A stretch of 64,000 nt of DNA from Escherichia coli (GTDB lineage Bacteria > Pseudomonadota > Gammaproteobacteria > Enterobacterales > Enterobacteriaceae): the NCBI RefSeq assembly GCF_003991155.1, contig NZ_CP031293.1; one strand, given 5' to 3'. This document shows positions 1 to 33,888 of the stretch, piece by piece. Below the pieces are notes generated by a model that saw only the letters and a list, made by a program, of their open reading frames with translations, was not told where the DNA came from and made no database searches. Numbering within the stretch: the first letter of the stretch is position 1; each line of letters begins with the position of its first letter. A program made the position numbers and the translations under genes.

Positions 1-976
1 CCATCGCCTGGAAGTCCAGCATCCCCTGAACATGTGCGACGCAGCTCTGTGCCGCTTCTTTTTGCAATCTGGCGTGTTGCTGTGGATCCTGCTGTGCAGC
101 GCGCCATTGTTCTACGCTCCAGCCCATCGGTAGGTAGCCATAAACCAGATCGTGAGCGGAAGTCTGGTCGGTCACCAGATCCGGCTTGATCGCCCCCTGA
201 CGTGCACGTTTCACCAGTTCAGGAACAATTTCCGCCGCATTGCCCAACAGCGCGATTGAAACAGCGTCTTTGCGCTCAGTATGGTATTTAATCAGCGCCA
301 GTGCATCATCGAGATCTTTCGCTTGTTTATCGACATAACGGGTACGCAGACGGAAGTCGATGCTACTTTGCTGGCACTCGATATTTAATGAACACGCCCC
401 CGCCAGAGTCGCCGCCAGCGGTTGTGCACCGCCCATACCACCTAGCCCTGCGGTCAGGATCCATTTTCCACTCAGCGAATTGTTGTAGTGCTGACGACCC
501 GCTTCAACAAAGGTTTCGAACGTTCCCTGCACAATGCCCTGACTACCGATGTAGATCCACGAGCCAGCGGTCATCTGGCCGTACATGAACAGACCTTTAC
601 GATCCAGTTCATTGAAATGATCCCAGTTGGCCCATTGCGGTACCAGGTTAGAGTTGGCAATCAATACGCGCGGCGCATCGGTATGCGTTTTAAACACGCC
701 TACGGGTTTACCGGACTGAACCAGCAGTGACTCATCAGCTTCCAGATTTTTCAGTGATTCAAGGATTTTGTCAAAACACTCCCAGTTACGTGCCGCACGA
801 CCAATACCACCATACACCACCAGATGCTGTGGATTTTCGGCAACGTCGGGATCAAGGTTGTTCTGCAACATCCGATAGGCAGCTTCGATCTGCCAGTTTT
901 TGCAGTGCAGCTGCGTACCGTGTGGCGCATGGATTACACGGCTGGTATCAATACGCGGGTCTGAAGGCTTACTCAT
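1..976 (-). CDS. hutU: Urocanate hydratase, N-terminal ~325 codons; 3' end lies beyond the window edge
   Basis: Minus-strand frame open to position 1; ATG at 974-976 preceded by GGAG; my translation [23 protein letters not shown]...[15 protein letters not shown]...[15 protein letters not shown]...[13 protein letters not shown] matches the urocanase family. Confidence 0.85.
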
Positions 977-1041
977 GAATCTTCTCCTGTTACTTGATAA
1001 AATTAAACGCTGTAATCGGTCAGAAAAAACGAACGAATGAA

Positions 1042-1060
1042 TATAGAAACGGTTTCTATA
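1042..1060. promoter_or_regulatory. Perfect 9-1-9 palindrome TATAGAAAC-G-GTTTCTATA about 70 bp upstream of the hutU start; candidate operator
   Basis: Palindrome read directly from the sequence; no match to a named operator consensus asserted. Confidence 0.3.
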
Positions 1061-1733
1061 ATTCCCGTTTATCATTTTGTATTATTAATTCATTTAGTGA
1101 ATATTGTTTGTCGTGGTATATTCACTATGAATATAAATTCAAAACCACCAACGCGTTGTATGCGAATTCAATATGCTTAATTTAACTTGTCGAAAAAGTG
1201 ATATTGTTGGCAAAATATTTTCTAATTTGAACATATGAATATGATGAGATTGCAAGATGTCAGTAATTTAATTATATGAGAAATGCGTTAATAACGACCA
1301 GATATTAGCGTAACAACAGGTGTTCCGACACCACACAGTGCGCATAACACAATGATATTTAAAATAAGATCTTCATTATTCGTCATAAAGACATGTTTTA
1401 TTATCATTAATAATCCATTTGTTTTCATCCCACTTTTGATAATTAAAAAACGGCAACAATGGATAGTTACCCGACGTAAAAACAGGCGTAAAAATAAATC
1501 TTAAAATATATCCACTGGAAATTATCATTTTTCATATTTTACAATCTGGCGTCGATAACTGACCCCTTTTATAACACCCCCGTTTGTTAATAGTCTTTTT
1601 TATCTTGTATTGATCGTCATTGCTGCATACACTACGCGCGTTTTCTTTCCCTTTTGCTGGCTGCTGACCGGAAAGACAAAATTACCCTCGCAATAAAGGG
1701 GGTTGTTTAACGTCTATATTTCAGGACAGCGTT

Positions 1734-3131
1734 ATGCATCATCTTTCAAGGCTTGATAAAGCCTTTCTGCGCAAAGGGATCCAACTTTCCCGCGCCAACA
1801 ATATTGTTTCATTATGTCGTCCATCAGGAGCCAGTGCCCACGTACTGCTGCCGGACGAACTGCCGCTGGAAGAAAAAGCAGTGACACAACTGCTTGATTT
1901 TGCAGAAGTGAAGATACCAGACCATCCAGGTTACGTACGCCAGACCTGTGCGACGCCAGATTTTCATCCCGGCAATGGCGTCCCCGTTGGCGCGGTAGTC
2001 GCCTCTACGCCGGATTTAGTCATTCCTGCGGCCATCGGCACCGATATTTCTTGTGGCATGCGGCTGCTGACGACCGGATTAACACTTGAGCAAGCCGAAG
2101 CGAATAAAGAAATAATCACTCAGCGGTTAACACAAGTGTTACTGCAAAATGAGCGCGATGTTCCGTTATCCGCACGAGCGTTCACCGCGCTTTTTGATGG
2201 CGGACCGGCAGATTGCATGTCGGCCTTGCCATCAGCAGGTCTCTGGACACGTACAAATATCCCCCGAATGACGCAAGAGATTGACCGCTGCATTGGGCTT
2301 AACGAGCATAACAGTCATTCGCGTTATGCCCCACCCGCCCTACTGGTAACGGACCGCCCATTACTCCGCGATCCTTGTCTTGGTACGCCGGGTTCAGGTA
2401 ATCATTTTATTGAACTTCAGGTGGTTGATAGCGTGGTTGATCGCCATGTTGCCTGGCAACAAGGGCTGAAAACGGGCGATATTGTGGTGATGATCCACAG
2501 TGGATCGCGAGATGTTGGCTTTTACGTCGGAAGACGCTGGATGGATCGCGCCCGTGCTGAATGGCCCACCGGACATAAACATCCACAAAGCGGGTTATAT
2601 GGCCTGGCAGGCGGACTGGCGGAGGAATATCTACAAGCGATGGGAATGGCGGCGCGTTACGCGTGGTTAAATCGCGTCACAATTGCCGAAATGGTGCGCG
2701 TATGTCTTGCCAATCTCTTTCATCAGGACAATTCGCATCTGGTGGTGGATGTGCCGCATAACATCATCCTTCGCGAGCATGAAATGAATATTCATCGCAA
2801 AGGTGCAACACCGGCACGCGCGGGCAATCTGGCGTTAATCCCCGGTTCAATGGGCGATTATTCGTGGCTTGCAGTCGGTTGCGGCAACCCGGAGTGGCTG
2901 TGGTCTTGCAGTCACGGAGCAGGACGCAGCCAGCGTCGGCAGGCCATGCACTCACGCGCGACTGAAGAGTCAACGTTGCCGTGGCAATGCGTCACATTGC
3001 GCGAAGAACGGCGTATTGAAGAAGCGCCAGCTGCTTATAAAGATATTGGTCCGGTTATCGAAGCCCAACAAGAGGCCGGATTAATTCATCCAGCGGTTAG
3101 ATTCCGACCGTGGTTAACGTTTAAGGCATAA
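1734..3131 (+). CDS. RtcB-family RNA ligase paralogue (465 aa)
   Basis: ORF translation carries RtcB-type motifs: VIPAAIGTDISCGMRL, GSGNHFIELQ, IHSGSRDVG, IPGSMGDYS, CSHGAGR, AYKDIGPV; start codon uncertain (weak RBS). Confidence 0.85.
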   Translation: MHHLSRLDKAFLRKGIQLSRANNIVSLCRPSGASAHVLLPDELPLEEKAVTQLLDFAEVKIPDHPGYVRQTCATPDFHPGNGVPVGAVVASTPDLVIPAAIGTDISCGMRLLTTGLTLEQAEANKEIITQRLTQVLLQNERDVPLSARAFTALFDGGPADCMSALPSAGLWTRTNIPRMTQEIDRCIGLNEHNSHSRYAPPALLVTDRPLLRDPCLGTPGSGNHFIELQVVDSVVDRHVAWQQGLKTGDIVVMIHSGSRDVGFYVGRRWMDRARAEWPTGHKHPQSGLYGLAGGLAEEYLQAMGMAARYAWLNRVTIAEMVRVCLANLFHQDNSHLVVDVPHNIILREHEMNIHRKGATPARAGNLALIPGSMGDYSWLAVGCGNPEWLWSCSHGAGRSQRRQAMHSRATEESTLPWQCVTLREERRIEEAPAAYKDIGPVIEAQQEAGLIHPAVRFRPWLTFKA

Positions 3132-14859: not shown

Positions 14860-16170
14860 CTACACCAACAGCAAAGATATTGCCGGGATATAGGTAATAA
14901 CCAACAGCAGTAAAATAAGACTAACCAGTAGTGGCACCGCTTCTCGCATAAATTGCCCGACAGAAACCTGCACGGTATTACATACCAGCAGCATCACCGT
15001 TCCGACAGGCGGTGATAACGTTCCTAACGATAAGTTGAGGATCATGATGATGCCAAAATGCACCGGATCAATGCCAAAATGAGCCACCACAGGTTTAAGT
15101 AATGGAACTAATATCAGCAGGATGGCACTACCTTCAAGAAACATGCCAAGCACCAGCAGCAATAGATTGATAATCAATAAAAAGACGTATTTATTATCAG
15201 TCAGAGATGTCACAAACTCCGCAACCGTGATACCTGCCCGCTCAAGGGAAAATATCCAGCCCAGCGCGGCACTCGCCATAATGATTAACATGACCGATGC
15301 CGTCGAACGCGCCGTCTCTGAGAGTGCTGTAAATACATGGCTGATTTTCAGTTCGCGATAAATTACAAAACCAATAAACATCACCAATAATACTGCTACG
15401 GCTCCAGCTTCCGTTGGCGTAAAGATATTTGCCCGAATACCACCGATAACCGCAACAATTAAGAACAGTGCTGGCCAGGCCTGCACCAGCGCCACTGACA
15501 CTTCTTTCGGTTTTGGCCAGTGTTCGCTGGAAGGTTTTAAACCGCGCCGAATAGCTACCAGCCATACAGTGACAATCAACATGGCGGAACACAGCAGACC
15601 GGGCAGGATCCCGGCCATAAACATGGAGCCGATGGAGACATCCGCCACCAGTCCGTAAAGGATCAGTGCAATACCCGGTGGAATAATTGGTGTAATCAGC
15701 GAACCACTTGCCGTTATCGCCGCCGCAAAGCCACGGGAATAACCTTTCTGTTCCATTTCCGGCACCATCATGCGCGATAACATCGCAGCATCCGCCAGGT
15801 TTGAGGCGCTAACGCCGCCCATCATGGTACTGACCAGAATATTAGCCCCACCCAGACCACCGCGCATTCTGCCAATCAACACGTTGGCAATTTGCAAAAT
15901 ACGCGCGGCAATACCGGTATAGCTCATTAACGTGCCTAATAAGATAAAAAATGGAATAGCTAACAGCGAAGGGGTTTGCGTCGTGGCAATCAAACGCTGA
16001 ATTGCTACCATTAACGGCACATTTGAATAGCAAAGGAAGTAGGTCAGAATGCCGCAAAACATCGCCAGCCATACCGGCATATTGATAAATAAACAGATGA
16101 ACATAAGCGGAATGATCATTAGCCAGTTATCCAGCCAGCTTCCCGCCAGTAATTCACTCAATGCTGTCAT
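14860..16170 (-). CDS. TRAP transporter large permease (DctM family)
   Basis: 436-aa polytopic membrane ORF; start overlaps the dctQ stop by 1 nt. Confidence 0.85.
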   Translation of the reverse strand: MTALSELLAGSWLDNWLMIIPLMFICLFINMPVWLAMFCGILTYFLCYSNVPLMVAIQRLIATTQTPSLLAIPFFILLGTLMSYTGIAARILQIANVLIGRMRGGLGGANILVSTMMGGVSASNLADAAMLSRMMVPEMEQKGYSRGFAAAITASGSLITPIIPPGIALILYGLVADVSIGSMFMAGILPGLLCSAMLIVTVWLVAIRRGLKPSSEHWPKPKEVSVALVQAWPALFLIVAVIGGIRANIFTPTEAGAVAVLLVMFIGFVIYRELKISHVFTALSETARSTASVMLIIMASAALGWIFSLERAGITVAEFVTSLTDNKYVFLLIINLLLLVLGMFLEGSAILLILVPLLKPVVAHFGIDPVHFGIIMILNLSLGTLSPPVGTVMLLVCNTVQVSVGQFMREAVPLLVSLILLLLVITYIPAISLLLV

Positions 16171-16631
16171 TATTCACCTTCCTTGCGTGGCGTTTTCTTG
16201 ATCAGGTGTAAGGCAGTAAAACAGGCGATACCGATTGCACCAACCGTGACCGCAATATCGATCCAAAACCAGGATATTTTTAATATTTGCGTGGTTTTAA
16301 ATGCTGTTCCGGCAGCTAATTTCCATGCTGACCAAGCCATCACACTCAGTAAAACAATAGATATCAGAGAGACAAATAACGTTAAAACACGTTGCACGCG
16401 TGGTGTCAGTGCATCAGCTAAAAATGGAATCGACAAATGGGTATTATCCCGCTCGGCAACGACCGCACCAAACATGACTACCCAAATCATTAATAAACCG
16501 GAAACCTCTTCTGTCCACTGTAATGGCATATGAAAACAGTAACGCATTATTACCGCAGCAATGGTCATGATTACCAATATAAAGAGCGTTAATACCGCAG
16601 CAACTTCAATCATTTTCCCTAAAAGACGCAT
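16170..16631 (-). CDS. TRAP transporter small permease (DctQ family)
   Basis: About 153 aa with 4 predicted TM segments; start chosen at the ATG (MRLLGKMIEV...) with AGAGG RBS rather than the upstream GTG. Confidence 0.8.
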   Translation of the reverse strand: MRLLGKMIEVAAVLTLFILVIMTIAAVIMRYCFHMPLQWTEEVSGLLMIWVVMFGAVVAERDNTHLSIPFLADALTPRVQRVLTLFVSLISIVLLSVMAWSAWKLAAGTAFKTTQILKISWFWIDIAVTVGAIGIACFTALHLIKKTPRKEGE

Positions 16632-16650
16632 AAACACCTCTGCTCTTAAC

Positions 16651-16672
16651 GGTCGGTGCCGAAACACCGACC
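16651..16672 (-). other. Intercistronic hairpin between the TRAP binding-protein and permease genes (GGTCGGTG..CACCGACC)
   Basis: 8-bp perfect inverted repeat with 6-nt loop, read from the sequence. Confidence 0.4.
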
Positions 16673-16690
16673 AGTCCTTATGCCATGAAG

Positions 16691-17659
16691 TTATTTCAGC
16701 TGTTGCTGAATAGTGTCATACAAACCAGGGGTCCATTCCGGGAATTGTTGATAGACTTTTAAGGCTTTTTCTTTGAAAGGGGCGACGTCAGGATAGATAA
16801 TTTCCACGCCCTGCTCCTGCATGGTTTTCAACATTGTCGCATCCTGCTCAGTGGTAATTTTCTGGCTATATAAACCAGCTTCATACGCTGTCTGGTGAAT
16901 AATATCTAACTGCGCAGGTGTCAGGGTACTGAAAAACGCTTCACCACCCAACCATAATGATGTATTGGTCAGATAGTTCACCATTGACAGATATTTCGCC
17001 TGCTCATGCAGTTTTTGCCCATACAGAACAGAAACCGGGTTTTCCACACCATCGATCATCCCCTGCGTCAGCGCCGGATAAACGTCTCCCAGCGGCATTG
17101 GCGTTGGGGTTGCGCCCATTGCTTCAATGGCTTTAATCTGCATAACGTTATTCGGCACGCGGATCTTCATCCCTTTCAGGTCTTCAGGTGTACGAATCGG
17201 TTTTTTAGCAATGATCTGCCTGGTACCGTACAGATAGTTGCTCATGACAATATGCACACCTTTTTCCCGTAGTTTCTGTTCTTTTTGTTTAAACCAGTCA
17301 CTGGCATAAATCGCAAACAGTTTCTGCGGATCTTCGGTTAAATAAGGCCCAAACAATATTCCCAGGTCTGCATCGTAGTCAGTTAAAAATCCCACATCAC
17401 TGATGGTGATAATATTCATCCCCATCAACGCTTGTTCAGTAATATCTTGTTTAGAACCTAACTGTGAACTTGGGTAAAGTTCGAAAACAATATCTCCATT
17501 GCTTTTTTTCTTCACAAGTTCTGCCCAGTGCTTCACTACTGTATCCGCTGGCTCGCCGGGGTTACTTTCATAGGCGATTTTGATAGTTACCGGTGCGGCA
17601 TTCAGCATCGGACTAAATAAAGCGAAAAGAAATAAAAGTGGTGTCAGTAATTTTTTCAT
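16691..17659 (-). CDS. TRAP transporter periplasmic solute-binding protein (DctP family)
   Basis: 322 aa; signal peptide MKKLLTPLLFLFALFSPMLNA; conserved KIRVP region typical of carboxylate-binding DctP proteins. Confidence 0.85.
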   Translation of the reverse strand: MKKLLTPLLFLFALFSPMLNAAPVTIKIAYESNPGEPADTVVKHWAELVKKKSNGDIVFELYPSSQLGSKQDITEQALMGMNIITISDVGFLTDYDADLGILFGPYLTEDPQKLFAIYASDWFKQKEQKLREKGVHIVMSNYLYGTRQIIAKKPIRTPEDLKGMKIRVPNNVMQIKAIEAMGATPTPMPLGDVYPALTQGMIDGVENPVSVLYGQKLHEQAKYLSMVNYLTNTSLWLGGEAFFSTLTPAQLDIIHQTAYEAGLYSQKITTEQDATMLKTMQEQGVEIIYPDVAPFKEKALKVYQQFPEWTPGLYDTIQQQLK

Positions 17660-17686
17660 TATTATTACCTGTAAGAGCTTTATCGA

Positions 17687-18883
17687 TTAACGGGGATCTG
17701 CCCGACAGACTGCACTTTTGCTGTAATCAAATGCTTTATACGTTAAAACAAACTCCTGATGTTCCAGTCGTTCTGCGGCACAATATTGACCGTTGGCGAC
17801 ATGTTCAATCACCTGCATAATATCGTCTGCAATATCGTCGAGCGTTGCGCCTTCGCTAATTACACGACCGGCATTAACGTCCATATCGTCAGATAAATGC
17901 TCCCACGTCTGCGGGTTATTACACACTTTAATAATAGGAGCGATCACTGAACCAATAACTGAACCGCGACCTGTGGTAAATAACACCATATGACAGCCAG
18001 AGGCGATAAGTTCCAGTGCTTCTGAGGAATCGTTAATATTCGGATACCCAAAACGAGGTTCACCATCAGGCACCACGTCCATCAACCAAAGCCCAGGAAA
18101 GGGCGTTTGTTGCGTCGGCAAAATAACGCCAGCAATCAGCGCATCGCCCGACTTGGTATAAGCCCCAAGGGATTTTTCTTCCTGAGTGGTTAAGCCGCCT
18201 TCAGCATTACCATTAGAAAAACTCCCCAGCCCCATCAAACTGTAATAACGTTCGGCTTTTGCCATTGCCACTTCGATGGCATCACGTGCCTGCGAACTAG
18301 CCGCGCGCGACATCATATGCTGCTCACAACCAAGCAACTCACCGCTTTCTTCAAAAATACAGGTAGCCCCTTTCTCCAGCAGTTGGTCAAAGGCACGTCC
18401 TACTGCCGGGTTACCCGTGATACCACTGGTGCCATCGGAGCCACCGCAGATAGTACCAACCACCAGGTCGCTCCAGTTCAGGATACAACGCGGTGTATCC
18501 GCAAGCTGTTCCAGCATTTCAGCGACCAACTGCTTACCCAGAGTAATGGTGTTGGTCGTGCCTTTATTTTCCTGAATGACCAGCGTATGGCACGGTCGCC
18601 CACTTTCTCGTACTTCTTGCTCCAGCCGACGGCGATCAAAATTCTCGCACCCCAGCGAAATAATCAGTACACCACCTACGTTGCTATGAATCGCCAGATT
18701 TTTTACCAGACGATAGCCATAATCGCTGGGATAACAACCTGAAAAACCAAAATACTGCACGTCGTGACAAGGAAATCCTTCGGCAATCTTTTTAGCGACA
18801 TGGCTGGCACACTCCACCATAAAGATTACCTGCACAGTATTACGAATACCCGGTCGACCATTTTGCCGTACATAACCTTCCAT
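17687..18883 (-). CDS. UxaA-family (altronate/galactarate dehydratase-like) large subunit
   Basis: 398-aa ORF MEGYVRQNGRPGIRNTVQVIFMVECASHV... resembling the C-terminal catalytic part of UxaA/GarD; start overlaps the small-subunit stop (TAATG). Confidence 0.8.
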   Translation of the reverse strand: MEGYVRQNGRPGIRNTVQVIFMVECASHVAKKIAEGFPCHDVQYFGFSGCYPSDYGYRLVKNLAIHSNVGGVLIISLGCENFDRRRLEQEVRESGRPCHTLVIQENKGTTNTITLGKQLVAEMLEQLADTPRCILNWSDLVVGTICGGSDGTSGITGNPAVGRAFDQLLEKGATCIFEESGELLGCEQHMMSRAASSQARDAIEVAMAKAERYYSLMGLGSFSNGNAEGGLTTQEEKSLGAYTKSGDALIAGVILPTQQTPFPGLWLMDVVPDGEPRFGYPNINDSSEALELIASGCHMVLFTTGRGSVIGSVIAPIIKVCNNPQTWEHLSDDMDVNAGRVISEGATLDDIADDIMQVIEHVANGQYCAAERLEHQEFVLTYKAFDYSKSAVCRADPR

Positions 18884-19194
18884 TATGCTTTTTCCTCTGG
18901 CTGATAGCCGGCATCATCATGATGAAAAATGGCGATGGCATTGCTGGCAAGATTATGGGAATGCACATGTTCACCCATGGCAATATCGCGAGTGGCGTGT
19001 CCGATAATGGCGCCGTATTTCAGAATCGAATCACCATTGTTCAGCGCTTCGCAGGCCAGTTTGTGACCCAGGGTAACGGAACTACAGGCCACCATTTCCC
19101 CCTCATCCCACCAGACAATATCGCCACTGGCGATGTCATTCAGCGCGACTACACAGTTATCTTTGGCATGTAGCTTTAACGCACGTTTGCGCAT
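18883..19194 (-). CDS. SAF-domain small subunit of the split UxaA-type dehydratase
   Basis: About 103 aa from MRKRALKLHAKDNCVVALNDIASGDIV... with GGAGG RBS; corresponds to the N-terminal domain of single-chain UxaA. Confidence 0.7.
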   Translation of the reverse strand: MRKRALKLHAKDNCVVALNDIASGDIVWWDEGEMVACSSVTLGHKLACEALNNGDSILKYGAIIGHATRDIAMGEHVHSHNLASNAIAIFHHDDAGYQPEEKA

Positions 19195-19208
19195 AATTCC
19201 TCCGTACA

Positions 19209-19964
19209 TCAGAAGCCGATCAATGCGCCGCCATCCACCACCAGCACCTGACCACTGACAAATGCCGCTGCGTCTGAAGCCAGATAAACCGCAGCCCAAC
19301 CGATATCTTCCGGCTTGCCGAATTTTTTCATCGGTGTCCGCCCCAGGATTTTGTTACGGCGTTCGTCATCACCTTCAATGGCCTTACGCAACATTGGTGT
19401 ATCGATCCAGCCTGGCGCAATACCGTTGACGCGAATCCCATGAACGGCAAGCTCCGTGGTCATACCGCGAATCATGCCGAGATAGGCTGACTTCGCTGCG
19501 CTGTAGCCAGTAACCAGAGGCTGCCCAAGAAATGAGGTCATCGATGCAGTAAAAAGCACACAGCCTTGACCGCGTTGTTTCATATGCGGCACCAGCGCTT
19601 TGGTTAACGCAAATGCGCCGACTACGTGAACGTCGAGTACTGACTCAAAATCACTGACGCTCATCTCTTCAATCGGTTTTTTGCAGTGATTGCCTGCGTT
19701 ATTGACCAGGATATCGATAGCCCCGTGTTCGCTAATAAGCGCATCAACTTTTTCCTGCGCGGCTGCGGTATCCCCGACATCCATTTGTATCCAACTGGCC
19801 TGCGACCCCAATGTTCCGGCGGTCGCTTGCGCCAGCTCGCCGTTCAGGTCAGCAATAATGACCTTCGCCCCGCTGACTATCATGCATTTCGCCATTGCCA
19901 GCCCCAGCCCACTGGCTGCACCGGTGATCAACGCGGTTTTGTTATGTAAAGAAAAAGCATTCAT
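19209..19964 (-). CDS. Short-chain dehydrogenase/reductase (KduD/IdnO-like)
   Basis: 251 aa; TGAASGLG nucleotide-binding motif, IDILVNNAG, YSAAK catalytic motif; AAGGAG RBS. Confidence 0.85.
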   Translation of the reverse strand: MNAFSLHNKTALITGAASGLGLAMAKCMIVSGAKVIIADLNGELAQATAGTLGSQASWIQMDVGDTAAAQEKVDALISEHGAIDILVNNAGNHCKKPIEEMSVSDFESVLDVHVVGAFALTKALVPHMKQRGQGCVLFTASMTSFLGQPLVTGYSAAKSAYLGMIRGMTTELAVHGIRVNGIAPGWIDTPMLRKAIEGDDERRNKILGRTPMKKFGKPEDIGWAAVYLASDAAAFVSGQVLVVDGGALIGF

Positions 19965-19975
19965 GGTGTCGCTCC

Positions 19976-20989
19976 TTAAAGGTCAATGAGGATTTTGGTA
20001 TACGCGCCGGGATCACTTGCCCAGTCGCTAAAAGCATGATCAGCCTGTTCCAGCGGGTAGTGAGCACTCACCAGATTGCTGACCGGATAACGCCCGGACT
20101 CCATCAATGCCAGCACGGCACGAAAATCCGCCACGGTGGCATTGCGCGAACCACGGATATCCAGTTCTTTCATCAGGAACTGCGCACTCTGATAACTCAC
20201 TGGCTGTTTGGCGTAACCGACATAAACCACACGACCGCTAAACGCCACCAACCCTGTAGCCTGTTCAATGGTTTGTTGATTACCCACCGCTTCAATCACC
20301 ACTTCCGGGCCGCGACCGTCATTTAACAGCACCAGTTCTGCCGCCACGTCACATTGCTGCGAATTAAGAAAACGTTGCGCACCGCATTCCAGGGCAATGT
20401 TCTGCTTGCGATCATCAATATCGATAGCAATTACGCGCGCCCCCATGGCGGATGCCGCGGCGATAGCGCCAAGGCCAATTACCCCACAACCGATAACTGC
20501 GACCCATTCACCCACATTAATTTGCGCACGTCTGGCCGCATGTAGTCCCACGGCCAGCGGTTCTACCAGCGCTAACTCATCAACACTTAAGGCATTACAG
20601 ACAATGACTTTATGTGCAGGCATCGTCAGTTGTTGCGCCATCCCCCCCTGACGTTGCACACCAAGAGTTTGGTTGTTTTTACAGGCGTTAGGACGACCGC
20701 TCAGACAGGAGCTGCACACGCCACACTCAGTGCAAGGCAGAACGACCACCCGGTCACCTGGCTTGATCGCCCCTGCCATATCGCCAGTTGCCAGCACCGT
20801 GCCGCCAATTTCATGCCCCGGAATACAGGGATAATTAACCAGCGGATTCAGTCCCCGCCATGTATTGAGGTCAGAACCACACAGTCCGACACGCTCAACA
20901 TTGATTAGCACTTCTCCTTTACCGCAGACAGGTTCGGGGATATCAACAAATCGCGCCTGACTTCCCTGCTCAATGGTTAATGCCTTCAT
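19976..20989 (-). CDS. Zinc-dependent medium-chain dehydrogenase (IdnD / sorbitol dehydrogenase-like)
   Basis: 337 aa; GLCGSDL, GHEIGG, structural-zinc Cys cluster CTECGVCSSC, GCGVIGLG NAD fold; AAGGAGA RBS. Confidence 0.85.
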   Translation of the reverse strand: MKALTIEQGSQARFVDIPEPVCGKGEVLINVERVGLCGSDLNTWRGLNPLVNYPCIPGHEIGGTVLATGDMAGAIKPGDRVVVLPCTECGVCSSCLSGRPNACKNNQTLGVQRQGGMAQQLTMPAHKVIVCNALSVDELALVEPLAVGLHAARRAQINVGEWVAVIGCGVIGLGAIAAASAMGARVIAIDIDDRKQNIALECGAQRFLNSQQCDVAAELVLLNDGRGPEVVIEAVGNQQTIEQATGLVAFSGRVVYVGYAKQPVSYQSAQFLMKELDIRGSRNATVADFRAVLALMESGRYPVSNLVSAHYPLEQADHAFSDWASDPGAYTKILIDL

Positions 20990-21001
20990 TCATTGCTCTC
21001 C

Positions 21002-21688
21002 TTACATTACGCCGAAGGTTTCAAAGGCCTGTACCGTGCTCATGCCATCACTGATGGCTTTGCGCACTTCACTTTCAGTTGCCACTTTTTCCAGGGCCTG
21101 GGTAATAACTTCTTTCTCAACAACCTGGGGAATAATCAGTAATCCATCACGATCACCAAACACGATATCGCCCGGATTCACCCGCACGCCGTGAAATTCA
21201 ATAGGTACGCCGAAGTCGATGACCTTGCCGCGCGGACCTTGATCTTGTGCGTAAGTGCCATGACAAAAGGTGGGAAATTTCAATTCAAGAATTTCAGCAG
21301 AGTCACGGGCGTAACCATCGAGTACCGCACCTGCTGCTTTCAGATGCATGGCACGGGTAGACATCAACCCGCCCCACAAGGCATAGCGCAGAGAGCTGCC
21401 CGTAGTGATGTAAACATCGTTCTCTTTGAGGGCATCCAGCGCTTCAAACATGATGCCAAACGGTTTTTCGCCAATCGCCGTCTTACCCGACGTCGATTTG
21501 GTTTCGTAAACGTCCGACTCCAGCACCGGCATTGCCCGGCCTGCCACCACCGTATTCACATCCAGCGGCTTGATTGCCGGAGAAACAAACTGGTGCATAT
21601 AGCCCAGCGTGTCGAGAATATCGCCAACCACGGCGGTAAATAGCCGGGTTTTCATCAAAGCAAAAAGTTCGTTATCACTCTTCCACAT
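21002..21688 (-). CDS. RraA-like protein, putative class II 4-hydroxy-2-oxoacid aldolase
   Basis: About 228 aa from MWKSDNELFALMKTRLFTAVVGDILD... (RraA/MenG-like fold family); first gene of the operon. Confidence 0.75.
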   Translation of the reverse strand: MWKSDNELFALMKTRLFTAVVGDILDTLGYMHQFVSPAIKPLDVNTVVAGRAMPVLESDVYETKSTSGKTAIGEKPFGIMFEALDALKENDVYITTGSSLRYALWGGLMSTRAMHLKAAGAVLDGYARDSAEILELKFPTFCHGTYAQDQGPRGKVIDFGVPIEFHGVRVNPGDIVFGDRDGLLIIPQVVEKEVITQALEKVATESEVRKAISDGMSTVQAFETFGVM

Positions 21689-21694
21689 TATTTT

Positions 21695-21728
21695 CACCCT
21701 GTAAGCCTGTTTAACAGGTTTACAGGGT
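21695..21728. promoter_or_regulatory. Nested perfect palindrome (ACCCTGTAA-G-CCTGTT-T-AACAGG-T-TTACAGGGT) at the 5' end of the operon; candidate operator or RBS-occluding RNA hairpin
   Basis: Read from the sequence; lies 7 nt upstream of the RraA-like start codon and overlaps its Shine-Dalgarno region. Confidence 0.35.
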
Positions 21729-21951
21729 AAGGAGAAAAAGCGCACAATACTGCGAAGGGCGTCACGAAAAAGTTGTGTATTTACTATTTCTTCGCCACTC
21801 TTTCACACAATATGTCTTTGATTCGCACTGCATGGCGGGCGCACAGGCGCAGTAGTCTATTGATAATCAAGGGTTCTGGAGGAAAATATGAAGGATACAG
21901 TCCCGGTATTCTGGATTTTACCGACCAGGAAAAAGTACAACAGGAGTAAAA

Positions 21952-22665
21952 ATGAGTGAGAGTGCGTTATTGACCAGCGTAACGTTATCGTCACAGGTCA
22001 AAAATCATATTCTTAATCTGATCGCCGAACAAAAATTGACACCGGGGATGCCAGTTCCCAGTGAAATTCAGTTGATTCAGAAATTGGGCGTCAGTCGGGG
22101 TATTGTGCGTGAGGCCTATCGTTCACTTGCCGCCCTGGGGATTCTGGAAACGCACAGCGGTAAAGTGCCACGGATCAAAAAATTTGATGATGAAGTGCTG
22201 CGCGTGGTGTTTGGATTTGCCCTGGCGACCGAACAAGTAACAACAGAGCAAATTCTTCAAGTACGTCGCTGGCTAGAGTTGGGCGTTGTGGAAGCTGCTG
22301 CCCGTAATGGCGGAGAAGAAGATTTTGCTAACCTACGGGCTGAAATGGCAAAAATCCGCGAACAGTTCGATGATGTCGAAAGCTTTATCACCCATGACAT
22401 CCGCTTCCATCAGTTACTCGCCGTTGCCTCAAAAAATCCGCTTTTTATGATGTTATTGCAGGCATTACATCAGCAATTGCGGCAATCCATCCAGGAGGGA
22501 TTAAACGCCCAAAGCGATCAGAAAGAGTATGGCAATCACATCATCACACTACACCAGAAAATCTGCGACGCTGTGTGTGCCAGAGATGTCGAAACGGCGA
22601 CTCAAGCCATGAAATCACACTTCGACAGCCCGGTCAGTGCACTGATCAATAATTCCTCGCCATAA
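21952..22665 (+). CDS. GntR-family transcriptional regulator (FadR-type C-terminal domain)
   Basis: 237 aa; N-terminal winged HTH (EIQLIQKLGVSRGIVREAYRSL) followed by an all-helical domain; divergent from the catabolic operon. Confidence 0.85.
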   Translation: MSESALLTSVTLSSQVKNHILNLIAEQKLTPGMPVPSEIQLIQKLGVSRGIVREAYRSLAALGILETHSGKVPRIKKFDDEVLRVVFGFALATEQVTTEQILQVRRWLELGVVEAAARNGGEEDFANLRAEMAKIREQFDDVESFITHDIRFHQLLAVASKNPLFMMLLQALHQQLRQSIQEGLNAQSDQKEYGNHIITLHQKICDAVCARDVETATQAMKSHFDSPVSALINNSSP

Positions 22666-27874: not shown

Positions 27875-29539
<1,665 letters not shown>

Positions 29540-29554
29540 CAGGCCAGCACCGAT

Positions 29555-29588
29555 GCCTGATAAGACGCTCGCTGCGTTTTATCAGGCT
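29555..29588. repeat. REP-like palindromic element between convergent dtpD and phr
   Basis: GCCTGATAAGACGC...GCGTTTTATCAGGC inverted repeat. Confidence 0.45.
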
Positions 29589-31000
29589 CCTTTCCTCGCT
29601 TCTTCGTACGCTGCCAGCGTTCGCAGCCTTGCCTCTTTGTGATCAACTATCGGTTGCGGATAATCCAGCGTCACACCTGCTTTCTGCGCCCACTTCCACG
29701 GCTCATGCACCACTTTCCCTGGCACATCGCGCAGCTCCGGGAGCCACTGGCGGATAAATTCGCCTTCGCGGTCAAATTTCTCACCCTGAGTTGTCGGGTT
29801 GAAAATACGAAAATACGGCGCTGCATCGGTTCCGGTTGAAGCGGCCCACTGCCAGCCACCGTTATTGGCTGCCAAATCACCATCAATCAGCTGCGACATG
29901 AAATATCGCTCACCTTCGCGCCAGTCGATCAATAAATCTTTCACCAAAAAACTGGCTGTAATCATCCGTAGCCGGTTATGCATCCAGCCAGTGCTGTTAA
30001 GCTGACGCATGGCAGCATCAACAATCGGGTATCCCGTTTTGCCTTCCTGCCAGGCCTTTAAATGCGCGGAATTGCTCTGCCACTGCACGCGGTCGGTCCA
30101 GACAATAAACGGACGATGTTTACACAGCGAGGGGTAATACGTTATCAGATGACGGTAAAACTCGCGCCAGATCAGCTCATTAAGCCAGATACTACCGGCC
30201 CCACCGTCCAGCGCCTGCGGCTGTTCCGCCAACAGGCGATGCAAACACTGGCGAGGCGATAACCCGCCCGTTGCCAGGCTGGCGGACAAACGGCTGGTGC
30301 CTTCTACCGCAGGGAAATCTCGCTGTTGCTCATACTCTCCGGCACCGTTCTGGCAAAACTGGCGTAATTGCGCAATCGCCGCTTTCTCTTCCACCGGGAA
30401 ATGCGCAGTATCGAAAGGCTGACGAGGATAATTCAGCGTAATGGATGGCGCGGGCTTTATCGATCCGCTACTACGAACTTTTGGTGCAGCGACGCACTCC
30501 GGCATCCCTTCCCGCAGCCGTTTCAGCCAGGCATTTTGAAAAGGCGTAAAGACTTTGTACATCTCATGATTGCCAGTCATCACCGCCCCCGGCGGCAGGA
30601 TCACGCTGTCGTCAAATCCTTCACACACCACGTTACGCAGCGTTCTCTCAACCTGCACATCCCGCGCCCGCTCATTCACCTCATACTGATAGTTATAAAA
30701 CAGATGGGTAACACGATTTTCCGCGCACACCTGTTTAACTATTTCGACGCTGGCGGCAAAGTCATCCACTTCATGAAACAGTAAAGGAATGCCTTTTTCC
30801 GCCAGCGCAATTTGTAGCCCATTCAGTTGAGCATTGATAAGTTCAGCCTGACGCGGCGACATGTTATGCGCCGCCCACTGGCGTGGTGTAGCGATATACA
30901 ACGCCAGCACGCGCGCAGACGAATTGCGGCAGGCGGCAGCCAGCGCGAGATTATCATGCTGACGTAAATCCTGGCGAAACCAGACCAGATGGGTAGTCAT
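29582..31000 (-). CDS. phr: Deoxyribodipyrimidine photolyase
   Basis: 472-aa ORF MTTHLVWFRQDLRQHDNLALAAAC... Confidence 0.93.
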   Translation of the reverse strand: MTTHLVWFRQDLRQHDNLALAAACRNSSARVLALYIATPRQWAAHNMSPRQAELINAQLNGLQIALAEKGIPLLFHEVDDFAASVEIVKQVCAENRVTHLFYNYQYEVNERARDVQVERTLRNVVCEGFDDSVILPPGAVMTGNHEMYKVFTPFQNAWLKRLREGMPECVAAPKVRSSGSIKPAPSITLNYPRQPFDTAHFPVEEKAAIAQLRQFCQNGAGEYEQQRDFPAVEGTSRLSASLATGGLSPRQCLHRLLAEQPQALDGGAGSIWLNELIWREFYRHLITYYPSLCKHRPFIVWTDRVQWQSNSAHLKAWQEGKTGYPIVDAAMRQLNSTGWMHNRLRMITASFLVKDLLIDWREGERYFMSQLIDGDLAANNGGWQWAASTGTDAAPYFRIFNPTTQGEKFDREGEFIRQWLPELRDVPGKVVHEPWKWAQKAGVTLDYPQPIVDHKEARLRTLAAYEEARKGA

Positions 31001-31506
31001 AAAACTCCTGAATGGCGCAAGTTAATCACACGCGGCCAAAGTTCGAAATAACGCTGCCCTGAAAGCCAGGCGTCAGGATAAAGCGCCATATAGTGTTTGA
31101 TACGCATCAGCGGCGCAAGAAGCGGTTGCTCGCCACCGCGATAACTGTCGATAAGCGCCGCCAGCTGCTGGCGTTCTGTGGAATCAATATGAGGGCGAAA
31201 ATAACCCTGAACGTGCATCAAAACATTGGTGTGGTCACGTCGGTTGGCGGGGTGAGAAAGCAAAACAACTACGCGTTGGCGGTACTGGTTGTAATAGTCA
31301 TCCAGATTTTGCCACTGGTGAATATCAGCCACGAACGGGCCAAGTTTGCGGTACTCGGGCTGGGAATGGGCCAGAAAGACGAGTTTATAGCGGCTGTGAT
31401 AATCGTTGAGTGCCCCGCGCGTTAGTCCTCGATCTTTGAGATTGTGTAACTCATGCAAAGCAAAAATGCGGATAAGGGTGCTGTCATCAAAAAGTTGTTG
31501 ATTCAT
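30997..31506 (-). CDS. ybgA: DUF1722-family protein
   Basis: 169-aa ORF overlapping the phr start by 4 nt. Confidence 0.85.
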   Translation of the reverse strand: MNQQLFDDSTLIRIFALHELHNLKDRGLTRGALNDYHSRYKLVFLAHSQPEYRKLGPFVADIHQWQNLDDYYNQYRQRVVVLLSHPANRRDHTNVLMHVQGYFRPHIDSTERQQLAALIDSYRGGEQPLLAPLMRIKHYMALYPDAWLSGQRYFELWPRVINLRHSGVL

Positions 31507-31544
31507 TACTGCTCCTGAACGGTTTACAGGAGTAAGTGTAGACG

Positions 31545-31584
31545 CCGAAAAAAGAAAACCGCCAGCGTTTCCACCGGCGGTTTT
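31545..31584 (-). terminator. Intrinsic terminator downstream of ybfA
   Basis: Stem AAAACCGCC/GGCGGTTTT followed by a U-run on the minus strand. Confidence 0.55.
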
Positions 31585-31606
31585 CTTTAAACGTCATGTT
31601 TGGCAA

Positions 31607-31813
31607 TCAGTAAAAATCACCGGTTGCCTTTTCGGCCTGATCCATCCACACCGGTTTATCGCTGGTTTTCGACCAGACGCGGTGCAGGTAGCTGTAAAAG
31701 CGGGCGCGGTCTTTCCAGAAAAGCATGAAAGGCAGCGCCAGAACGCCCGCTGCAACCGCATAAGTACGGCGTAAAAAGATAAGCCATGCAGGATATTCTC
31801 TGTAGAGTTCCAT
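31607..31813 (-). CDS. ybfA: Small membrane protein (DUF2517)
   Basis: 68-aa [36 protein letters not shown]... Confidence 0.8.
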
Positions 31814-32021
31814 ACTTTTCTCCCCCTTTTGTATCTACCCGGTGAATGGCACCGGAAAAATGAATTTGTTTATCTGATGAAAATAGTACCGCCTTTTGTG
31901 TAATTTTACTACTCATCCGACCACTTATTTTTGTTTATTGATGGTTTATTTACATTCACTGTGTAATTAAGTTACACAAAAGTTAAATTAATACTAAACA
32001 TTAGTTAAATCATGGCTTTTG

Positions 32022-32048
32022 CCATTTTTATACTTTTTTTACACCACG
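32022..32048 (+). promoter_or_regulatory. kdpFABC promoter with KdpE-binding region
   Basis: CATTTTTATACTTTTTTTACACCACGCCCG matches the T-rich direct-repeat KdpE site described for E. coli. Confidence 0.5.
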
Positions 32049-32125
32049 CCCGCAGATTTTTGCGAAATCTTTGCAGCCAGAATTCTACCCTTCCGATATC
32101 ACTTTTAGGCCACTGGAGGTGCACT

Positions 32126-32215
32126 GTGAGTGCAGGCGTGATAGCCGGCGTGTTGCTGGTGTTTTTATTACTGGGTTATCTGGTTTATGCCCTGATCAAT
32201 GCGGAGGCGTTCTGA
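32126..32215 (+). CDS. kdpF: K+-transporting ATPase subunit F (29 aa)
   Basis: GTG start; [29 protein letters not shown]; stop overlaps the kdpA start. Confidence 0.8.
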
Positions 32216-33888
32216 TGGCTGCGCAAGGGTTCTTACTGATTGCCACGTTTTTACTGGTGTTAATGGTGCTGGCACGTCCTTTAGGCAGCGGGCTGGCGCG
32301 GCTGATTAATGACATACCTCTTCCCGGTACAGCGGGCGTTGAACGCGTACTCTTTAGCGCGCTTGGCGTCTCTGACCGCGAGATGAACTGGAAGCAGTAT
32401 CTCTCAGCCATTCTTGGCCTGAATATGCTGGGGCTGGCGGTGCTTTTTTTTATGTTGCTCGGTCAGCACTATCTGCCGCTTAATCCACAGCAGTTGCCGG
32501 GGCTGTCGTGGGATCTGGCGCTCAATACCGCCGTCAGCTTTGTCACGAATACCAACTGGCAATCTTATAGCGGTGAAACCACGTTGAGCTATTTCAGCCA
32601 GATGGCGGGCTTAACGGTGCAAAACTTTCTTTCTGCCGCCAGCGGGATTGCGGTGATTTTTGCCCTCATCCGTGCGTTTACCCGCCAGAGCATGAGCACG
32701 CTCGGGAATGCCTGGGTCGATCTGCTACGCATCACGTTATGGGTGCTAGTCCCTGTGGCATTGTTGATCGCATTGTTTTTTATTCAACAAGGTGCGCTGC
32801 AAAACTTTCTGCCCTATCAGGCGGTGAATACCGTTGAAGGAGCGCAACAGCTGTTACCCATGGGGCCTGTAGCTTCTCAGGAAGCGATCAAGATGCTCGG
32901 TACTAACGGCGGTGGCTTCTTTAATGCCAACTCGTCGCATCCGTTTGAAAACCCAACCGCACTGACCAACTTCGTGCAAATGCTGGCGATTTTCTTGATC
33001 CCAACAGCGCTGTGCTTTGCCTTTGGTGAAGTGGCGGGCGATCGTCGCCAGGGGCGCATGTTGCTGTGGGCGATGTCAGTGATTTTTGTCATCTGCGTAG
33101 GCGTAGTGATGTGGGCAGAAGTTCAGGGTAATCCTCATCTGCTGGCGCTCGGCGCGGACAGCAGCATCAATATGGAAGGTAAAGAGAGCCGTTTCGGCGT
33201 GCTGGTCAGTAGCCTGTTTGCGGTCGTGACTACGGCGGCTTCCTGCGGCGCGGTGATTGCGATGCATGATTCGTTTACCGCTCTTGGTGGCATGGTGCCG
33301 ATGTGGTTGATGCAAATTGGTGAAGTGGTATTCGGCGGCGTCGGTTCCGGCCTTTACGGCATGATGCTGTTTGTTCTGCTGGCGGTGTTTATTGCTGGGC
33401 TGATGATTGGTCGTACACCGGAATATCTGGGTAAAAAAATCGACGTACGTGAGATGAAACTGACTGCACTGGCGATTCTGGTCACCCCGACGCTGGTGCT
33501 GATGGGCGCGGCGCTGGCAATGATGACCGACGCCGGACGTAGCGCCATGCTCAACCCTGGCCCGCATGGTTTTAGCGAAGTGCTGTACGCCGTGTCGTCC
33601 GCCGCTAACAACAACGGCAGCGCCTTTGCCGGATTAAGCGCCAACTCTCCATTCTGGAACTGTTTGCTGGCGTTGTGCATGTTTGTCGGTCGCTTCGGGG
33701 TAATTATCCCGGTGATGGCAATTGCCGGTTCGTTGGTGAGTAAAAAGAGCCAACCCGCCAGCTCCGGCACGCTGCCAACGCACGGCCCGCTGTTTGTTGG
33801 CCTGTTAATCGGCACCGTGTTGCTGGTTGGCGCACTGACCTTTATCCCTGCCCTGGCGCTTGGTCCGGTGGCGGAATATCTCTCCTGA
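32215..33888 (+). CDS. kdpA: K+-transporting ATPase subunit A
   Basis: 557 aa from [24 protein letters not shown]...; the ORF track's longer N-terminus is rejected. Confidence 0.95.

Follow-up and report, generated by a model that had tools for sequence, protein, structure and literature searches.

In the 64-kb stretch of DNA analyzed here (hereafter the window), ybfA and ybgA are separated by an intergenic spacer of exactly 100 nucleotides (nt), as given by the list of open reading frames (ORFs) and the sequence itself. The TGA stop codon of ybfA occupies positions 31609-31607 and the ATG start codon of ybgA positions 31506-31504, which fixes the spacer at exactly 31507-31606. Near the spacer, phr, ybgA, and ybfA are encoded on the minus strand and the kdp operon on the plus strand, with ybgA being the first gene of a ybgA-phr pair in which it overlaps the start of phr by 4 nt. 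Gene names are those of the RefSeq annotation of NZ_CP029747.1, which is identical to the window over this region. The YbfA product has 100% amino acid (aa) identity to K-12 YbfA, and the YbgA product has 95% aa identity to K-12 YbgA. The features of the locus are as follows.

28058-29539, plus strand: dtpD (ORF list and annotation of NZ_CP029747.1)
29582-31000, minus strand: phr (ORF list and annotation of NZ_CP029747.1)
30997-31506, minus strand: ybgA, DUF1722 protein, 169 aa (ORF list and annotation of NZ_CP029747.1)
31507-31606, minus strand: the 100-nt ybfA-ybgA spacer, an unoccupied Rhs insertion site (sequence and K-12 comparison)
31512-31532, minus strand: translation-initiation region of ybgA (fold and sequence conservation)
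31545-31554, minus strand: 10 nt without a K-12 counterpart (CTTTTTTCGG on the minus strand), the K-12 insertion point (BLAST breakpoints)
31548-31588, minus strand: predicted intrinsic (rho-independent) terminator of ybfA (RNA fold and conservation)
31607-31813, minus strand: ybfA, DUF2517 protein, 68 aa (ORF list and annotation of NZ_CP029747.1)
From 32128, plus strand: kdpF, followed by kdpA, kdpB, and kdpC

Content of the ybfA-ybgA spacer

As minus-strand RNA, the spacer folds into a 17-bp stem closed by a GAAA loop (window 31551-31588), with 9 of the 17 bp forming a GC-rich core. The folded strand reads AAAGAAAACCGCCGGUG-GAAA-CGCUGGCGGUUUUCUUU, followed by further U, and the U-tract UUUUCUUUUUU lies directly after the hairpin, downstream of the ybfA stop codon on the coding strand. 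This fold has a minimum free energy of -42.7 kcal/mol, as opposed to -23.2 ± 3.1 kcal/mol for 200 shuffled sequences (z = -6.2), and none of the 200 shuffles folded as well as the spacer, indicating that the hairpin is real and well beyond chance. The structure begins 18 nt past the ybfA stop codon and combines a GC-rich stem (CCGCCGGUG/CGCUGGCGG) and its GAAA tetraloop with a 5' A-tract and the U-tract, such that, on its predicted fold, it is a textbook intrinsic terminator for ybfA. The hairpin is also present in K-12, Escherichia albertii, Escherichia whittamii, E. coli JSWP006, and two divergent Escherichia genomes (L004 and L006, described below).

Canonical intrinsic terminators of Enterobacteriaceae likewise possess a GC-rich stem, a stable GNRA-type GAAA tetraloop, and a 3' U-tract, and there is nothing unusual in the ybfA terminator by comparison. 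The 5' A-tract renders it symmetric and similar to a bidirectional terminator, although there is no converging gene at this locus. A simple terminator scan did not list this structure, in our reading because the stem runs into the T-tract and leaves too few unpaired T residues to satisfy the tail rule.

The Shine-Dalgarno sequence of ybgA (AGGAG, 31512-31516) is situated 5 nt before the ATG and, in the RNA fold, makes up the 3' arm of a small CUCCUG/CAGGAG hairpin spanning 31512-31532. K-12 and every other allele compared, whether empty or occupied, preserve the sequence of this initiation region, and the hairpin may have a regulatory role. The ORF list contains no ORFs within the spacer besides overlaps from ybfA and ybgA, and a promoter scan of 31300-32200 found no sigma-70-like promoter. 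A search of 31200-32300 against Rfam (E ≤ 1) detected no known RNA family in the spacer; three matches, to two miRNA families and to Leu_leader, were rejected as chance-level hits (19 to 22 bits versus gathering scores of 50 to 90). Judged from its sequence, the spacer appears to contain nothing beyond the predicted ybfA terminator and the ribosome-binding site of ybgA.

The K-12 insertion point and the states of the site in E. coli

In K-12 MG1655, the interval between ybfA (729134-729340) and ybgA (739001-739510) contains rhsC, ybfB, ybfO (a pseudogene), ybfC, ybfQ, ybfL (a pseudogene), and ybfD. BLAST comparison of the reverse-complemented window with the K-12 ybfA-ybgA stretch returned two collinear blocks. 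The first, covering kdpF, ybfA, and the terminator, matches K-12 up to window position 31555, and the second resumes at 31544, beginning CGTCTACAC, 38 nt before the ybgA ATG. The pairwise comparison thus assigns the entire K-12 excess of 9,570 bp to a single point of the spacer, and the positions of the two breakpoints indicate that the K-12 element interrupts the ybfA terminator within its T-tract. On either side, the kdpFABC-ybfA and ybgA-phr-dtpD flanks of K-12 are collinear with the window at 93 to 97% nucleotide identity. Neither the whole 9,570-bp K-12 insert, ybfL and ybfD included (blastn), nor the 1,397-aa K-12 RhsC protein (tblastn) has a match anywhere in the 64-kb window. Direct repeats flanking the K-12 element were sought by inspection only, and a TATCA pentamer near both of its ends, which is absent from empty sites, was judged to be a chance occurrence.

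The first-pass annotation had described this interval as 100 bp containing a terminator hairpin and as the apparent empty counterpart of the multi-kilobase rhsC element of K-12 with its associated small ORFs. The ORF coordinates and the fold bear out the first two points, and the pairwise alignment with K-12 that it suggested recovered the element between collinear flanks, with ybfA not directly adjoining ybgA in K-12. Its statement that the strain lacks the RhsC locus agrees with the searches of the window and applies to this locus, not to the whole genome. Calling the site empty is justified by the base-for-base alignment of the spacer with the 100- to 101-nt spacers of other Escherichia lineages (see below).

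Jackson et al. 2009 (PMC2935791) designated this site, between kdpA and phr, as Rhs "position 5," and the E. coli W genome paper refers to the same site as "b0699-b0706." The window shares the chromosomal site and collinear flanks of the K-12 RhsC element at position 5 but has no YD-repeat core, toxin tip, immunity gene, or ISAs1/H-repeat. More specifically, the GC-rich YD-repeat core ORF of ~3.7 kb that defines Rhs elements is absent from the 100-nt spacer and from searches of the 64-kb window, the C-terminal toxin tip and immunity ORF are absent from the spacer, and blastn detected no Rhs-associated H-repeat/ISAs1 transposases (ybfD and ybfL in K-12) in the window. Because every defining feature of the family is lacking, the spacer is an unoccupied site rather than a member of the Rhs family. 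Its flanks are collinear with those of K-12, the breakpoints collapse to one point (31555/31544), and the sequence at the breakpoint is homologous to that of island-free lineages and outgroups and contains no remnant of an element.

The empty RhsC site is an already known and common difference among strains. In a set of 5,426 complete E. coli genomes, the uninterrupted empty junction occurs in 1,308 (24%) as a contiguous match to a 220-nt query centered on the window spacer, and 1,097 genomes have a best match to the query with an identity of 99% or more. The K-12 left junction (ybfA, the terminator, and the first 110 nt of the element) is contiguous in 3,720 genomes (69%) and the K-12 right junction in 3,206 (59%). 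The remainder after the empty and K-12-type left junctions, about 400 genomes (about 7%), represents other states of the site. No megablast match to the rhsC core was obtained in 1,523 genomes (28%), and genomes having any rhs core sites possess a median of 6.

Individual strains illustrate the range of these states. Strain H8 has an IS1 inside an otherwise empty spacer, and strains of O157:H7, O103, and O111 are occupied. At this site, the ST117 strain 20Ec-P-124 (NZ_AP017610.1; locus L086, 10819-24018) carries a 13.2-kb Rhs element comprising a DcrB-related fragment, a 1,544-aa RHS protein that is larger than and different from that of K-12, one or more orphan RHS tips, two ISAs1 copies, a ybfD pseudogene, a SymE toxin, and an HNH/EndoVII polymorphic-toxin ORF. 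In JSWP006 (NZ_CP147083.1; locus L084, 14059-15807), the site holds a 1.75-kb segment with three small ORFs and no Rhs core, one ORF being annotated as an (orphan) immunity protein of a CDI system, and this segment represents a relic or, alternatively, an islet with an orphan immunity gene. It begins at the same T-tract point as the K-12 element and ends one base earlier, and this near coincidence of ends indicates that independent elements have repeatedly used the same few bases inside the ybfA terminator T-tract.

Distribution of the empty site across lineages and species

At least 40 chromosomes, among them those of 2016C-3878, CREC-544, MRY15-117, and MRY15-131, match a 24-kb portion of the window (20000-44000) with 100% identity. 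The last three strains have been reported as ST457, and one ST457 isolate has been typed as phylogroup F. By this identity, the strain represented by the window belongs to ST457, phylogroup F. LWY24 (NZ_CP054556.1), which was typed as ST93 in its publication, is also 100% identical to the window over the 24 kb, reflecting either a discrepancy in typing or labelling or a region common to unrelated STs.

Lineage-associated absence of RhsA-B-C-F-type elements has precedent in B2 strains: CFT073, 536, APEC O1, and E2348/69 were listed with zero rhs genes (Jackson et al. 2009). The phenomenon is the same in the window, although the window comes from ST457 of phylogroup F. Over 700 nt, the ybgA flank of the window differs from the B2-type junction by ~3.5%. 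ST117 belongs to phylogroup G, close to B2. The ST117 strain is occupied, and ST457 (phylogroup F) is empty, as are the B2 strains listed without rhs genes, a pattern that cannot be explained by a single gain on one branch. The empty state is a coarse, homoplasic lineage marker that does not cleanly follow the tree. The proposal in the first-pass annotation that the missing locus helps to type the lineage is therefore sustained only in a coarse sense, since some 24% of complete E. coli genomes share this homoplasic state. Absence of Rhs elements in particular lineages has been known since the ECOR surveys, in which Hill and colleagues (1995, Genetics 141:15) reportedly found a correlation between Rhs content and clonal group.

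The state of the site outside of E. coli was surveyed by a YbfA scan of one genome per species in a GTDB-based collection, which yielded 80 loci, none of them from E. fergusonii, and the non-Escherichia loci with informative downstream sequence represent 69 species of Enterobacteriaceae. In 68 of these 69 species, ybgA or phr starts 45 to 1,165 nt after ybfA, and an RhsC homologue is present at the site in none of the 69. The only multi-kilobase ybfA-phr gap outside Escherichia (1 of 69) occurs in Salmonella enterica subsp. arizonae CCUG 6322T (locus L056, 4297-8084); it is ~3.8 kb long and without an RhsC homologue.

Within Escherichia, both states are encountered. The occupied or K-12-junction genomes and the empty ones are listed below.

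E. albertii (L080): rhsC homologue with 92% aa identity, which begins 248 nt past ybfA; K-12 left junction and leader shared
E. whittamii Sa2BVA5 (L003): K-12 left junction shared; contig ends soon after
Escherichia sp. MOD1-EC7003 (L005): K-12 left junction shared; contig ends soon after
"E. coli" E69 (L004): 101-nt empty spacer
"E. coli" SCPM-O-B-8794 (L006): 101-nt empty spacer
E. coli JNEC-KY204: empty spacer of 100 nt; 87% identity across the 220-nt query

The elements of E. albertii, E. whittamii, and MOD1-EC7003, like the segment in JSWP006, begin at the K-12 left insertion point. L004 and L006 are divergent at the level of species, with 88 to 90% nucleotide identity to the window in ybgA-phr, and the empty spacers of the window, L004, L006, and JNEC-KY204 align base for base through the insertion point. 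In E. whittamii (L003, 9873-11441), whose assembly is labelled as ~8.6x coverage, the sequence past the left junction has a high GC content and broken ORFs, and it runs for 1.8 kb before the contig stops; tblastn found no RhsC match in this 1.8 kb.

Origin of the empty site and other lineage differences

We consider it likely that the window carries a pre-insertion allele, one either never occupied or regained by recombination through the flanks. Under this reading, the window would present the intact pre-insertion form of the ybfA-ybgA spacer, and K-12, together with the majority of other E. coli, would have acquired inside the terminator T-tract an Rhs polymorphic-toxin element made up of an rhs core gene, a toxin tip and its immunity gene, orphan tips, and ISAs1/H-repeat copies. 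The allele of the ST457 strain would never have received the element or, by an alternative route, the empty allele would have been regained via homologous recombination across the conserved flanks; it is possible that the ST457 lineage was once occupied and later had its allele replaced by an empty one. Several lineages possess one and the same alignable spacer, and the decayed site of JSWP006 looks different, which argues that the window holds the ancestral pre-insertion allele and that the event at this site was probably an insertion rather than a deletion. On the sequence, a simple deletion scar can be excluded.

Speaking against this reading, the insertion is itself old, with an rhsC homologue in E. 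albertii and the K-12 left junction in three Escherichia genomes. Given an occupied allele that is old and that has the same junction across species, both alleles must have either persisted or moved by homologous recombination between their flanks, and their spread among Escherichia would be attributable to such recombination or to long-term polymorphism.

The two flanks differ in their divergence from K-12, with nucleotide identities of 93.4% on the ybgA-phr side (29582-31506) and 97.1% on the kdpA-ybfA side (31607-33888), and the 5' end of ybgA is especially variable. The higher divergence of ybgA-phr could stem from long-standing linkage with one of the two alleles, empty or occupied. By extension, the two states could form an old trans-species polymorphism that is maintained by balancing selection on toxin and immunity and is moved by flank recombination, an idea that we put forward tentatively and regard as having the smaller share of the probability. 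Occupied alleles would then be those of E. albertii, E. whittamii, MOD1-EC7003, and E. coli of groups A, B1, E, and G, and empty alleles those of two cryptic lineages and E. coli of groups B2 and F, with the lower identity of ybgA-phr (93.4% versus 97.1% for kdpA-ybfA) being the footprint of long-lived linkage.

Loss of the element offers another account of the empty site, whereby the ancestor of E. coli carried the element and phylogroups F (ST457) and B2 deleted it cleanly, leaving the 100-nt spacer. This is exactly the history proposed for position 5 by Jackson et al. [quoted passage not shown] It accords with the shared left junction in E. albertii, E. whittamii, and MOD1-EC7003, which indicates that the element predates or crosses species boundaries, and with the occupied ST117 among empty F and B2 relatives. 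However, to recreate the same spacer, spontaneous deletion would need single-base precision in several lineages independently; no direct repeats that could mediate excision were seen on inspection around the K-12 element; the true decay product in JSWP006 retains 1.75 kb; and outside Escherichia none of the 69 informative species has an Rhs homologue at the site. We therefore view clean deletion as improbable. Loss through homologous replacement by an empty allele is indistinguishable from the explanation that we prefer and is already part of it.

That the element is present in the strain and was collapsed or skipped during assembly has a negligible probability: Rhs cores are multicopy repeats (a median of 6 places per genome having any) that often break short-read assemblies, and the E. 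whittamii and MOD1-EC7003 contigs do stop soon after ybfA, but at least 40 complete genomes, the PacBio-finished MRY15-117 and MRY15-131 among them, are essentially identical over 24 kb including the junction, the same uninterrupted junction recurs in 1,308 complete genomes, and independent species have a junction sequence that can be aligned with it.

Returning to the pre-insertion reading, its small added value is that 69 species of Enterobacteriaceae and two divergent Escherichia lineages point to the 100-nt spacer as the ancestral form, which qualifies the published inference of rhs at this position in ancestral E. coli. Otherwise, that an ST457 chromosome is without the RhsC polymorphic-toxin element at the kdp-phr site has little importance beyond bookkeeping. 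The absence bears on the capacity of the strain for contact-dependent competition, and the empty and occupied states constitute a simple presence/absence marker of PCR size.

Two further places in the window differ in gene content from K-12. At the left edge of the window (1-3131), sucD is followed by the start of hutU and a gene of the RtcB family (1734-3131); K-12 has mngR and mngAB after sucD and is not known to carry hut genes. Between gltA and abrB, the annotation of an identical genome places a ~7.8-kb cluster (window 14860-22665) encoding a GntR/FadR regulator, an RraA-family protein, a Zn-dependent alcohol dehydrogenase, an SDR oxidoreductase, a split UxaA-family hydrolase, and a DctPQM-like TRAP transporter. 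In JSWP006, the fimbrial genes ybgOPQ adjoin abrB in place of this cluster, and K-12 likewise has ybgOPQ next to abrB. The gltA-abrB cluster is another lineage-specific replacement in the window.
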